From the NCBI GenBank assembly GCA_002352345.1, contig DEIG01000009.1, forward strand, positions 7,573 to 71,572: a stretch of 64,000 nt of DNA, read 5' to 3'. The DNA comes from Methylococcaceae bacterium UBA2780 (GTDB taxonomy: Bacteria > Pseudomonadota > Gammaproteobacteria > Methylococcales > UBA2780). Positions 27,069 to 30,361 of this stretch are shown one piece after another. A program made the translations under genes and the position numbers. Within the stretch, counting starts at the first letter, position 1, and each line of letters opens with the position of its first letter. Under the pieces are notes generated by a model. That model saw only the letters and a list, made by a program, of their open reading frames with translations, did no database searches and was not told the origin of the DNA.

Positions 27069-28307
27069 TTACTGGAATGTAGGAATAATTGGGCCAGAAA
27101 TTTCTTCCATATAGGTTTTGCCATCAGCGCCTTGGAAGTATAGAACTCCACCAAAAGCACTATCAGGATCACCAATAAGACTTGAAAGTCTTTCTGTTTC
27201 CCATAAAGCGTCACTCGCTTCAATTTCTAAACGCGCAGTTTCACCCGGATAGATAGTTGGTTCACCTTGAACATTCAAACCATCTTTAGCCCAAAGTTCA
27301 GCACTGTCTGTTTTAGCTAGCGTTGGAATCAAGCTATTAGTAAAACGAACGTTAGCTGAGTTGAACTCCGCAAGTTTGATTGGTGTTGCAGAACCGTTAG
27401 TTATATCCAATGTCATTGTCATTGAACGACCTGGAATTCTGTAGTTAGCTTTAAGGATCTTAGCTTTTACTGCAGAGTTCTGAGGTGTTACAGGCAGTGC
27501 TTCAACGGGAATGATCGCACTTTGCAGTGGAATCTGAACAGGATACTGCTCTTTTGCTGAATTAGAGCTCATTGTAACCAGAACGATCGTACCAATAAGA
27601 AGTGCAATACCAACTTTCTTATCTGTTGACGTGATCAATGCATCTTCTTCACCATTCTGCACCATTAAGAAGCGTGGAATGAACAGAGGACGACGCACCC
27701 AATATAGAACCCAGAAAAGTGCTGGAATAGCCCAAATAATGTGCCATTTAACAACATTCGCAAAGCCATATGTATTTAGGTCGATTGCTTCACCAGTCAA
27801 AGTCGTCACAGGGTATGTAAAGTCTTCGTAAACACCTTCGATTAGTGTCCACTGCCCTGGACCAACTAGGCCACCAGCACTCTGCACATTAAGCATAGGA
27901 TGGATATGCGCCTCACCAGGCTTACGTCCACGAACAATAACTTTATATTCGTAGGTTTTTCCTAGTTCAAGCTTAAATGATTTAGCAGCTGGAACGCCGT
28001 TCAACCAAGTTTCAACTTTTGCTACAGCAGGACCTGGCTCAGCAACGTGAAGATAGGCAACATCAGGCTTCATGATAACTTCTGGCCATGCTTCCGCCAA
28101 AAGGAATTTACCTGTAATAGTCATCTCTTCATTAACAGCAACTCTGTTTGTTGAAAAGTTAGTGTCATACCAGTGAACGGTACGCATACGGAGAAAAGGC
28201 TCCTGCGAACGTTCCCCATGAGCACCCGCTTGAGGTGCATACAATGCTGTCAATGAAGTGACAATAACCGCCACTCCACCTAGCAATGAGATAATTTTAT
28301 TTTTCAT
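27069..28307 (-). CDS. pmoB: copper membrane monooxygenase subunit B (PmoB/AmoB family)
   Basis: Signal peptide then mature N-terminus HGERSQEPFLRMRTVHWYD. HIHPMLNV (HxH Cu-B ligands). Two central TM helices and a C-terminal cupredoxin domain. 412 aa. Confidence 0.93.
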   Translation of the reverse strand: MKNKIISLLGGVAVIVTSLTALYAPQAGAHGERSQEPFLRMRTVHWYDTNFSTNRVAVNEEMTITGKFLLAEAWPEVIMKPDVAYLHVAEPGPAVAKVETWLNGVPAAKSFKLELGKTYEYKVIVRGRKPGEAHIHPMLNVQSAGGLVGPGQWTLIEGVYEDFTYPVTTLTGEAIDLNTYGFANVVKWHIIWAIPALFWVLYWVRRPLFIPRFLMVQNGEEDALITSTDKKVGIALLIGTIVLVTMSSNSAKEQYPVQIPLQSAIIPVEALPVTPQNSAVKAKILKANYRIPGRSMTMTLDITNGSATPIKLAEFNSANVRFTNSLIPTLAKTDSAELWAKDGLNVQGEPTIYPGETARLEIEASDALWETERLSSLIGDPDSAFGGVLYFQGADGKTYMEEISGPIIPTFQ

Positions 28308-28355
28308 CTAATTAATTCCTCGGTAATCGTTATTAATTTACCTTGGTGCACCTTG

Positions 28356-29144
28356 TTAGGCGCGAACCTTAGCTGCTTTATCGAAGATGCTCTTCATCCA
28401 GCGCATTTTTGCGCCGACAGCACCTAGTTTCCACCATGCTGTATACATAATCATGCAGATAAATGCAGCGAAGAAAGAGGCGATCAATGCAGATTCACCA
28501 CCGAATGTACGTAGTGTTCCACGTTCAATCATTCTTAGGTATTCAGGTGTCGCTGTTCTAACGAATGCGTAGCCAACCATATCAGCAACTGACATCAGCT
28601 GACCCATGTGCTCAACTGGAACATGGTAAGGAGCAAGAATAACGATATTTTGCGCATAGAAAAGTAGCGCAAACAGTGGAGCACCAACAATAGCAGTTGC
28701 GACCCAATTCTTCGTCAACATAAGGACAGCATCAAGAACTAAAGCGCTCGCAATAAGCATCGCAGGCCAAGTTAGCGTAGCTGGAAAACCAGACCATATT
28801 GTAAAACCCCAGTAACGGTTCATCCACTCACCAAATAGCAGTGCAACGATACATAATGTCGCGCCAAGTGGAACCCTAAAGTATTCCCATAGTACATATT
28901 GAATAGCAGCAGGGAACGTAATCGCTACGATTGGTGTAATTGTGATCCAGAAACGTCTATCTTTCCAATCCACCCAAAAATCCCAGTCACCCGCGAGCAA
29001 CATAAAGTGAATGTGAAATGCGCCAGTAATGGCTAAAAACAATATAGGCACAAGCAGCAAGTCAAACTTTCTTGACATACCCGCCATAACAGGTGATAAA
29101 TCACCCGCTGATTTCGCGCCTACAGATTGAGCTGTTGCACTCAT
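28356..29144 (-). CDS. pmoA: copper membrane monooxygenase subunit A (PmoA/AmoA family)
   Basis: [60 protein letters not shown] SD. 262 aa, about 15 aa longer than the canonical proteins I recall. Confidence 0.93.
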   Translation of the reverse strand: [262 protein letters not shown]

Positions 29145-29218
29145 AACTGCCTCCTAACAAAGAATTTATATTTAAATTTAATCCCATCAACCAAAGTCAA
29201 TTCGGTCGAGGGGAATTG

Positions 29219-29248
29219 AGTATACGACCATTCCATCACGTGTTGCAA
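29219..29248 (-). promoter_or_regulatory. candidate internal sigma70 promoter for pmoA-pmoB
   Basis: Minus strand reads TTGCAA (29248-29243), 18 nt, TATACT (29224-29219). Lies about 75 nt upstream of the pmoA ATG and downstream of the pmoC terminator. Confidence 0.4.
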
Positions 29249-29451
29249 GGGTTTCGGAGCAATAAACCATATAATTAAACCGCTTTTTTACCCCTTAAAC
29301 TATTGACTTTTATTTTTTCTGCATTCCAATCAATTTCTGCTCTTCACAGAACTTCTTTTCATTACTGAAATCCCATTGCCATTCCAGATGAATTTTCTTG
29401 ATCCAGTAATTTACTTCCACACCTCTATTATTCTTTTGCTTTAAATTTTAC

Positions 29452-29485
29452 AAAAAAAATGCCGGAGGTTTTCACCTCCGGCATT
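29452..29485 (-). terminator. strong rho-independent terminator between pmoC and pmoA
   Basis: 12-bp stem aatgccggaggt/acctccggcatt (29458-29469 / 29474-29485), 4-nt loop, then T8 on the minus strand. Lies 46 nt after the pmoC stop. Confidence 0.85.
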
Positions 29486-29530
29486 TTGAGCCATATTTAA
29501 CGCTTAGAACTTACACTCTAATGCTAAATA

Positions 29531-30361
29531 TTATTTACCATACATATCACAGTATTCCATTGACTCATCTCTTAGTGGCATAACTTCTCCACCTTTTCCG
29601 TCGCTAGACATTTTCATCAATACAGCCATACGAATAGCAACTTGAAGAGCCAAACCAGCCAACATAAGTACTGTCCACCCTAGAACAACGAAGCCCCAGT
29701 GTAGTGGCGCAGTGAAGTACTCTTCCATTAGCCAGAAAGCATGTCCCCATTCGTTGTAGCCAACGTTTGGAAGAATCATGAAAGGACCAACAACTGCGAA
29801 CAGGTATGGGATTGAGATTTTAGATGCGAAATCAGGAAGTCTTGTTCTCGCATAGATAAAACCAGCAACACCAATCATGATGTAAACAGGCATTGTGCCG
29901 TAGAACAATACAATGTGGCTTGGTGTAAAGCTTGTATCACGTACCACTACCTGATGCCATGAAGCATCCTGCTCAGCGAAAAAGCTCGCTGCCCAGTAAA
30001 CTGCCATCGCATAAACAAAGATCCAACCGATCAAAGTGAAATAACGTTTCAACTCTTCATCAGCTGAAATATTGAAAACGTTTAAGTCACGCGTCTTCCA
30101 CATGTAAGACCAAAGCAATACACAACCCGCTGCTTCAAGTGTTACTTCCCAGTAGAAAAGTGACATCCAGTACTCGTCAAAAATTGGATCAGTTGAATCA
30201 AGACCCGCATACCATGCAGCCCACTGCTGATAAACACGAAGAGACACCACATAGATCAAATAGACAGCTGTCGCCATCCACGCGTATTTTAAGTTGCCGT
30301 AGACATTAACCGAGGGCTTCGCTCCCGATTTAGCTGCGACATCATGTGTAGTTGTAGCCAT
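29531..30361 (-). CDS. pmoC: copper membrane monooxygenase subunit C (PmoC/AmoC family)
   Basis: [24 protein letters not shown] (D-x3-H-x12-H site) and [20 protein letters not shown] (N-x3-H-x13-H site). About 6 TM segments. AGGAG SD. Confidence 0.93.
   Translation of the reverse strand: [276 protein letters not shown]

Follow-up and report, generated by a model that had tools for sequence, protein, structure and literature searches.

Which substrate does a copper membrane monooxygenase (CuMMO) oxidize when its host sits in the order of the classical methanotrophs but its sequence does not resemble theirs? The question is raised by three genes at positions 27069-30361 of a 64,000-nucleotide stretch of the genome of Methylococcaceae bacterium UBA2780 (assembly GCA_002352345.1, contig DEIG01000009.1, positions 7,573 to 71,572), here called the window. 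An earlier note, made from the letters alone, had described these genes as a divergent but apparently functional CuMMO of unassignable substrate that might act on methane, ammonia or short-chain alkanes or alkenes. The chief gases other than methane at seeps, vents and spills are ethane and propane, and the marine bacteria that consume them, together with their enzymes, are known mostly from marker-gene fragments. The analysis reported here identifies the locus as a pmoCAB(D) operon whose enzyme falls in the 'A2' clade of ET-HIRO. This rare marine clade came to light with the isolate ET-HIRO, and published work refers to its enzymes as pEMO or emoA. The encoded enzyme is probably a short-chain alkane monooxygenase, acting on ethane and perhaps propane, in a family-level lineage of the Methylococcales that lacks one-carbon assimilation. 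Of the substrates left open by the earlier note, the whole-genome check favours C2-C3 alkanes and speaks against both methane assimilation and ammonia oxidation.

The operon belongs to the ET-HIRO A2 clade

The relationship between the window enzyme and known CuMMOs was studied by database comparison and by phylogeny. The PmoA subunit is 87% identical to ET-HIRO PmoA2 (cluster P0003, listed in UniRef as 'Methane monooxygenase protein A2, Methylococcaceae bacterium ET-HIRO'), 88% identical to a protein of GCA_053986525.1 (cluster P0002) and 89% identical to its counterpart in the Guaymas Basin metagenome-assembled genome (MAG) B19_G6 (locus L007). Among 5.8 billion proteins only three PmoA clusters exceeded 80% identity, namely the window's own, P0002 and P0003, and no other match exceeded 67% in its best local alignment or about 60% when aligned in full. 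The Guaymas MAG was likewise the only close PmoA match among 185,579 species genomes (89%; the next stood at 62%). Its PmoC and PmoB orthologues are 89% and 94% identical, and it was taken as one with the single same-genus genome of the relatives set, which gave the same three identity values. With these identities the label 'unassignable substrate' was not borne out. The earlier note had expected its reading to fall if the subunits lay at over 80% identity inside a well-characterized clade of known substrate; an identity of 87-89% is indeed above that mark, but the clade itself is not well characterized, as ET-HIRO is unpublished and the isolate lost.

In a PmoA tree of 107 rows, the proteins of the window, ET-HIRO A2, the Guaymas MAG and P0002 formed one clade with a Shimodaira-Hasegawa-like approximate likelihood ratio test (SH-aLRT) value of 100 and a long stem of 0.6; tree and identity both place the window enzyme in the A2 clade. 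The clade lies within a heterogeneous radiation of the enzymes of Haliea ETY-M, of ET-HIRO A1, of ET-SHO A1 and Cycloclasticus, and of the Bradyrhizobium type. It falls outside the clades of canonical Methylococcales, alphaproteobacterial and verrucomicrobial particulate methane monooxygenase (pMMO) and outside the AmoA clade of the betaproteobacterial ammonia-oxidizing bacteria (beta-AOB). The PmoB tree agreed with this placement. In approximately unbiased (AU) tests, whose groups were defined with the tree already in view, the trees themselves being 'quick' ones, a union of the A2 clade with gammaproteobacterial pMMO was rejected (p = 0.0007), while a union with gammaproteobacterial and alphaproteobacterial pMMO together was rejected only marginally (p = 0.038). 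The likeness to Cycloclasticus- or Haliea-type hydrocarbon monooxygenases proposed in the earlier note thus pointed in the right direction.

The contig that encodes exactly the ET-HIRO PmoA2 protein has the gene order tadA-mltF-pmoC-pmoA-pmoB, as does the window, and the N-terminus and C-terminal tail of PmoC are also shared. ET-HIRO carries an additional CuMMO of A1 type (56% identical), whereas the genome studied here has the A2 type only, in a single operon. The Cycloclasticus-type enzymes, to which ET-HIRO A1 and ET-SHO A1 belong, resemble the A2 enzyme in that they, too, branch apart from the methane and ammonia clades, have many of the same PmoC substitutions close to the copper sites and come from hosts of the same order (families f9 and f1). 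GTDB places Cycloclasticus in the Methylococcales (PMC11409719), and family f9 clusters with named Cycloclasticus sequences in the tree. These enzymes are, however, only 50-55% (A), 52-55% (C) and 45-48% (B) identical to those of the window and form a separate clade that is not the sister of A2. The enzyme of Haliea sp. ETY-M/ETY-NAG, another marine gammaproteobacterium within the same broad radiation, is more of a contrast, with about 52-54% identity, a place in another clade and a host that grows on ethylene, not ethane; it is active on C2-C3 gases and not on methane (PMC4036023).

As far as the contigs reach, the relatives show the same neighbourhood as the window, consisting of guaB-guaA-tadA-mltF, pmoCAB, pmoD, a multicopper oxidase and a cupredoxin gene. 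The guaB-guaA-tadA-mltF part is complete in GCA_053986525.1 (L123) and partial in L007 and L125, and the operon therefore looks vertically inherited. Recent horizontal transfer was considered and rejected, since the related genomes and contigs that were compared have the operon in this same housekeeping setting. The host and its sister genome form a separate family within the order; the other families mostly carry canonical pmoA. A search of the genome for 16S rRNA gave no match, and the order was deduced from its relatives.

The monooxygenase is intact and retains its copper ligands

The three open reading frames (ORFs) lie exactly where they had been placed, on the minus strand in the order C-A-B. 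They encode a pmoC-type subunit C of 276 aa (29531-30361; Pfam AmoC, 314 bits), a pmoA-type subunit A of 262 aa (28356-29144; Pfam AMO, 325 bits) and a pmoB-type subunit B of 412 aa with a signal peptide (27069-28307; Pfam Monooxygenase_B, 487 bits). All three scores are far above the cut-offs, and the three subunit families together with the gene order assign the system to the CuMMO superfamily of pMMO, ammonia monooxygenase (AMO) and hydrocarbon monooxygenase.

Every CuB, CuC and CuD ligand known from pMMO could be aligned residue by residue with solved chains, in keeping with the earlier statement that all metal ligands are visible. In PmoB, the CuB ligands H30, H134 and H136 (the latter two as HIH) align with H33/H137/H139 of Methylococcus capsulatus (chains 3RGB_A and 6CXH_A). 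The mature chain starts with H30, in the sequence HGERSQ, after a signal peptide ending in AGA. In PmoC, the CuC ligands D132/H136/H149, in a D-x3-H-x12-H motif, align with D156/H160/H173 of M. capsulatus (chains 7EV9_C and 1YEW_C), and the CuD ligands N203/H207/H221 form the N-x3-H-x13-H motif. H44-I-H46 is present in PmoA. The enzyme is intact and apparently functional. It has the three-subunit architecture, CAB order and full set of copper ligands of the pMMO of M. capsulatus Bath and other Methylococcales (3RGB, 7EV9, 1YEW) and differs from these enzymes in an identity of only 43-50%, in a Leu at the position of M. capsulatus PmoB H72, the second bis-His residue, and in a host without the ribulose monophosphate (RuMP) pathway.

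The sequences do differ substantially from known PmoA and AmoA, as had been noticed: in a comparison with 18-19 canonical pMMOs from the order, subunit C has a median identity of 48%, subunit A of 50% and subunit B of 43%. With 262 aa against 247 aa in the M. capsulatus chain, PmoA has 15 additional residues, the difference that had been estimated. The C-terminal extension described for PmoC is real but modest, at about 11 aa beyond the 260-aa M. capsulatus chain, and its tail (GGEV.PL.DESM.Y) is conserved in the three nearest relatives. A comparison of PmoC that took in the clade, canonical pMMO and Cycloclasticus types, with no AMO residues, gave 33 positions that are fixed in the clade and different in canonical pMMO, many of them common to the Cycloclasticus-type enzymes, and does not imply that these positions are specific for alkanes. 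Those flanking the copper ligands include A133, L152, M157 and W222.

Two stand-alone, divergent AmoC-family proteins are encoded elsewhere in the genome, at 56711-57373 (-) of contig C7 and at 164857-165567 (+) of contig C18 (220 and 236 aa, with Pfam AmoC scores of 71 and 53 bits). Both still have the QDASW.Q stretch but have lost five of the six PmoC copper ligands (H136 replaced by Y, H149 by R or Q, and CuD gone).

One-carbon and nitrifier genes in the host genome

The host assembly (2.37 Mb in 25 contigs, 99.98% complete) was searched for the pathways that methanotrophs and nitrifiers depend on. Hexulose-6-phosphate synthase, the marker of the RuMP pathway, gave no match over the cut-off, compared with its presence in 24 of the 41 genomes of the order that were searched; it was likewise not found in the sister genome or in the Cycloclasticus-like family. 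RuBisCO (PF00016) was not found, the controls of the search being positive, and Fae was also not found in the genome. A single HpcH/HpaI-family match was considered as a malyl-CoA lyase and rejected, since it sits in a lipopolysaccharide/O-antigen cluster; with it the genome's only candidate for that enzyme is lost. Because the markers of the RuMP pathway, the serine cycle and the Calvin cycle were not found, biomass cannot be formed from one-carbon units by any of these three known routes.

Families f3 (G003/G011) and f8 (G008, G015, G021, G027 and G037) of the order combine a canonical-type pmoA with no hexulose-6-phosphate synthase found; these families may use another one-carbon route, or may not be methanotrophs.

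One-carbon oxidation genes are nevertheless present. A XoxF5-like methanol dehydrogenase, scoring 1017 bits to the Methylotuvimicrobium XoxF structure 6DAM, is encoded at 76548-78167 of contig C10 with an adjoining XoxJ-like gene. FrmA and FrmB are both present in the genome, in which MxaF was not found.

For nitrification, no ORF with 6-9 CxxCH motifs was detected in the genome, from which it follows that no HAO-like octahaem protein is encoded. A search of the genome with PF13447, the HAO probe, was also empty, but its controls were silent too and it proves nothing alone. Lacking both HAO and RuBisCO autotrophy by these searches, the host, as far as its gene content tells, cannot live as a nitrifier. 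On the 8.4-kb contig C1, two adjacent ORFs (5415-7004 and 7001-8416, +; 529 and 471 aa) have 21 and 10 CxxCH motifs; they could represent an extracellular electron-transfer module or a mis-binned contig.

A putative route for C2 and C3 compounds

The earlier note had seen no mxaF or xoxF in the window. The genome encodes two genuine pyrroloquinoline quinone (PQQ) alcohol dehydrogenases, both on contigs other than that of the window, where the only matches to the family score a weak 22-26 bits and are confined to a single 388-aa open frame. Besides XoxF5, the genome encodes a PedH-type PQQ ethanol dehydrogenase at 5298-7094 of contig C21, with 886 bits to the lanthanide enzyme 6ZCW and the same WDFDG stretch; both PQQ alcohol dehydrogenases are of lanthanide type. 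A pqqABCDE operon is found at 95337-98558 of contig C24, followed by a 694-aa ORF.

Acetyl-CoA synthetase (Acs, 1019 bits), isocitrate lyase (791 bits) and malate synthase A (819 bits) are all present. A methylcitrate cluster comprises a prpE-like gene, prpB, prpC and an 864-aa aconitase-like ORF, which, read from its sequence without a family search, is probably acnD. The phasins mentioned in the earlier note were recovered as two tandem Phasin_2 genes of the window (9696-10082 and 10261-10605, +); they point to storage of polyhydroxyalkanoate (PHA), which fits a metabolism centred on acetyl-CoA, that is, on C2 units. Judged by these genes, the host can be expected to grow on C2 and C3 acids and alcohols.

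A short-chain alkane monooxygenase as the best explanation

A genome without the routes of one-carbon assimilation and nitrification, the presence of genes for a C2/C3 route and 87% identity to an enzyme from an ethane user together make a short-chain alkane monooxygenase the best explanation of the locus. The PmoC positions that the A2 clade has in common with Cycloclasticus-type enzymes are a supporting detail. The marine isolates ET-HIRO and ET-SHO were deposited as ethane-assimilating, and their database entries report no growth on methane (PMC4678205, PMC4036023). Their genes have served as references for 'pEMO' (PMC3659317), and the ET-HIRO A2 enzyme is regarded as a putative particulate ethane monooxygenase.

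From the gene content we infer the following flow of carbon. The CuMMO in the inner membrane would insert one oxygen atom into a small alkane by means of CuC/CuD of PmoC and CuB of PmoB, the main substrate being ethane and propane likely being used too. The resulting ethanol would be oxidized in the periplasm by the PedH-type lanthanide- and PQQ-dependent dehydrogenase, and acetaldehyde would probably be converted to acetate by the same enzyme. Acetate would then be activated by acetyl-CoA synthetase and assimilated via the tricarboxylic acid cycle and the glyoxylate shunt, with surplus carbon stored in PHA granules, while the methylcitrate cycle would take up propionate derived from propane. 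Methanol and formaldehyde that arise from side-oxidation of methane would be removed by XoxF and FrmAB.

Several points weigh against this explanation. CuMMOs are promiscuous, and their substrate is not predictable from sequence. ET-HIRO has two CuMMOs, and it is A1, not A2, that groups in the PmoA tree with the Cycloclasticus enzymes tied to ethane and propane use; the ethane phenotype, which belongs to an isolate now lost, can therefore not be assigned to A2 from ET-HIRO alone. Knowledge of that strain's physiology comes solely from database notes, and a 2025 preprint calls the substrates in this region of the CuMMO tree hypotheses (bioRxiv 10.1101/2025.02.04.636526). The combination of XoxF5, XoxJ and FrmAB implies that one-carbon compounds are at least dissimilated. 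For competing alkane oxidation systems, the finding of no AlkB, P450 or di-iron monooxygenase in the genome comes from weak motif scans only. The acetaldehyde step is a gap: genome-wide phmmer and tblastn searches that used AldA, MhpF, AdhE and PaoABC of E. coli found no enzyme of the aldehyde dehydrogenase superfamily and no MhpF, AdhE or PaoABC, and PROSITE-style motif scans for aldehyde dehydrogenase found nothing. The only AldA match was a weak one (19.5 bits) to a 423-aa ORF that, from its sequence and without a family search, appears to be ProA. Note, however, that PedE and PedH are reported to oxidize acetaldehyde and butyraldehyde efficiently (PMC12997753); in a genome where searches found no classical aldehyde dehydrogenase, this step too may fall to the PedH-type enzyme.

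One interpretation that goes further, and that we regard as possible but would not yet favour, is that the lineage gave up one-carbon assimilation and became a dedicated oxidizer of ethane and propane. Its route would be unusually short, periplasmic and wholly lanthanide-dependent, with one PedH-type enzyme leading from alcohol through aldehyde to acid and no NAD-linked aldehyde dehydrogenase. If this were true, an A2-type enzyme alone would suffice for ethanotrophy, and cultures of the lineage would need lanthanides to grow.

Alternative substrates

It could be that the enzyme is a true pMMO, either of an unusual methanotroph or of a host that draws energy from methane through XoxF, FrmAB and formate oxidation and builds its biomass from other carbon. 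The host belongs to a methanotroph order, with a CuMMO in 31 of its 41 searched genomes, the enzyme has the complete set of pMMO copper ligands, XoxF5 is a very near match to 6DAM and is accompanied by the XoxJ-like neighbour and by FrmA and FrmB, and the sister MAG has been counted among methane users (PMC6258724). Set against these points, the genes of the RuMP pathway and the Calvin cycle and those for malyl-CoA lyase and Fae were not found in a nearly complete genome, the enzyme stands outside the canonical pMMO clades with a union with the gammaproteobacterial ones rejected, and ET-HIRO was reported without growth on methane (PMC4678205). On balance, methane as the proper substrate is unlikely.

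An enzyme for alkenes, such as the ethylene used by Haliea ETY-M, or for another small molecule such as acetone, in place of alkanes, is similarly improbable. It would suit the shared non-methane, non-ammonia radiation, and Haliea oxidizes ethylene, ethane, propane and propylene (PMC4036023); further afield, a verrucomicrobial pMMO homologue oxidizes acetone (PMC8630023). The Haliea PmoA is nevertheless only about 52-54% identical and is not the sister of the A2 clade, and the nearest named relative is an ethane user.

That the operon encodes an AMO is very improbable, even though this is what profile searches propose. The NCBIfam equivalog models are exceeded for all three subunits (AmoA_BACT 340.5 against a cut-off of 290, AmoB_BACT 528.4 against 336 and AmoC_BACT 344.2 against 319), and the best PDB matches of PmoA, the highest-scoring solved relatives, are betaproteobacterial AmoA chains (9CL6, 9LEG, 9PXF). 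These scores are taken to reflect the breadth of the models and not AMO identity: PmoB and PmoC are closer to pMMO than to AMO chains, the clade does not group with beta-AOB AmoA, and neither an HAO-like octahaem ORF nor RuBisCO was found in the host.

Decay of the operon into a relic of no current function, for which nothing direct speaks beyond a GC content slightly below the genome average (0.41-0.42 versus 0.45), was rejected as scarcely credible in view of intact frames, a full set of ligands, 88-94% identity to the orthologues, conserved synteny and conserved regulatory hairpins.

Implications for the A2 clade

The A2 clade, its probable substrate class and its non-methane nature are already in the literature. 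What appears to be new in the literature searched is the genome-level picture of a host with A2 alone, its loss of one-carbon assimilation, its all-lanthanide alcohol oxidation and the lack of a classical aldehyde dehydrogenase. Since ET-HIRO is the sole cultured source of the clade, the near-complete A2-only genome supplies a metabolic blueprint that was missing. The results suggest that the clade should not be counted among methanotrophs or nitrifiers in surveys: automatic NCBI annotation would name the operon an ammonia monooxygenase, the sister MAG has been listed as a methane user, and both labels look wrong. As both alcohol dehydrogenases are of lanthanide type, copper and light lanthanides supplied together with ethane offer a lead for cultivation. 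In addition, a clade that lies in the same order as the true pMMOs provides a natural comparison for the residues that set the substrate size of CuMMOs.

Regulatory elements and downstream copper genes

Sequence elements that might control the operon were sought around the three genes. A promoter-like site (TGGGCA-18-TATAAT, 30379-30408, minus strand; 10 of 12 matches in a consensus scan) lies just upstream of pmoC and is a pattern match only, the count of such sites in the region being no higher than in shuffles. Directly 3' of pmoC is a terminator-like hairpin with a T-run (29456-29487, minus strand; 14-bp stem with seven G-C pairs), for which the alignment shows a counterpart at this position in each of the four relatives; the stems differ from one another by compensatory changes. 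Upstream of pmoA, a second putative promoter (TTGCAA-18-TATACT, 29219-29248, minus strand; from the consensus scan) lies in a block that is conserved in three of the four relatives. The conservation of this hairpin and this block would allow separate or attenuated transcription of pmoC and pmoAB, and suggests that the two parts can be transcribed apart. A strong terminator-like hairpin follows pmoB (27013-27052, minus strand; 16-bp stem with eight G-C pairs, then a T-run).

The gene after pmoB (26432-26962, minus strand) encodes a 176-aa protein that had no Pfam or NCBIfam match. A profile built from 30 homologues matched the PmoD of Methylocystis sp. Rockwell (PDB 6CPD) with E = 1.3e-32, which assigns the gene to the PmoD/AmoD family on profile similarity, and the transcription unit is therefore read as pmoCABD. 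As in that PmoD, the gene follows pmoB, and the product can be read as a signal peptide, a periplasmic domain and a C-terminal membrane anchor. The gene occupies the same position in the relatives L007, L123 and L124. Among the 30 closest homologues (at least 46% identity), the mature N-terminal HGGL, C33, M42-H43, C58, H104 and E118 are invariant. The HGGL start is a feature of this subfamily and a difference from 6CPD, as is the spacing, which in the aligned stretch is C-x8-M-H here and C-x7-M-x-H in 6CPD. Nitrosospira and other Nitrosomonadaceae have homologues with 50-60% identity. The genome itself encodes four paralogues that are more distant (20-30% identity) and all without the HGGL start, on contig C21 (10132-10734, 10881-11474 and 182155-182772) and contig C17 (221281-221814). 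Two of these genes are located on the opposite strand from the PedH-type ethanol dehydrogenase gene, 3-4 kb downstream of it.

Further downstream on the minus strand is the gene for a secreted multicopper oxidase of 535 aa (24640-26247; Pfam Cu-oxidase_3, Cu-oxidase_2 and Cu-oxidase), which is kept behind pmoD in L007 and L123. It is followed by the gene for a secreted cupredoxin-like protein of 282 aa with an HvfA-like EGKCG arm (23789-24637; Pfam Cu-oxidase_2, 26 bits), for which the NCBIfam KCGExKCG_twice/HvfA match is weak, and then by a terminator-like hairpin from the hairpin scan (23773-23740, minus strand). The cupredoxin-like protein measures 276 aa in the Guaymas MAG and 192 aa in GCA_053986525.1 (L123, 12465-13043). 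Going by this difference in size, the EGKCG arm may be absent from the latter protein and hence be a variable add-on within the lineage.

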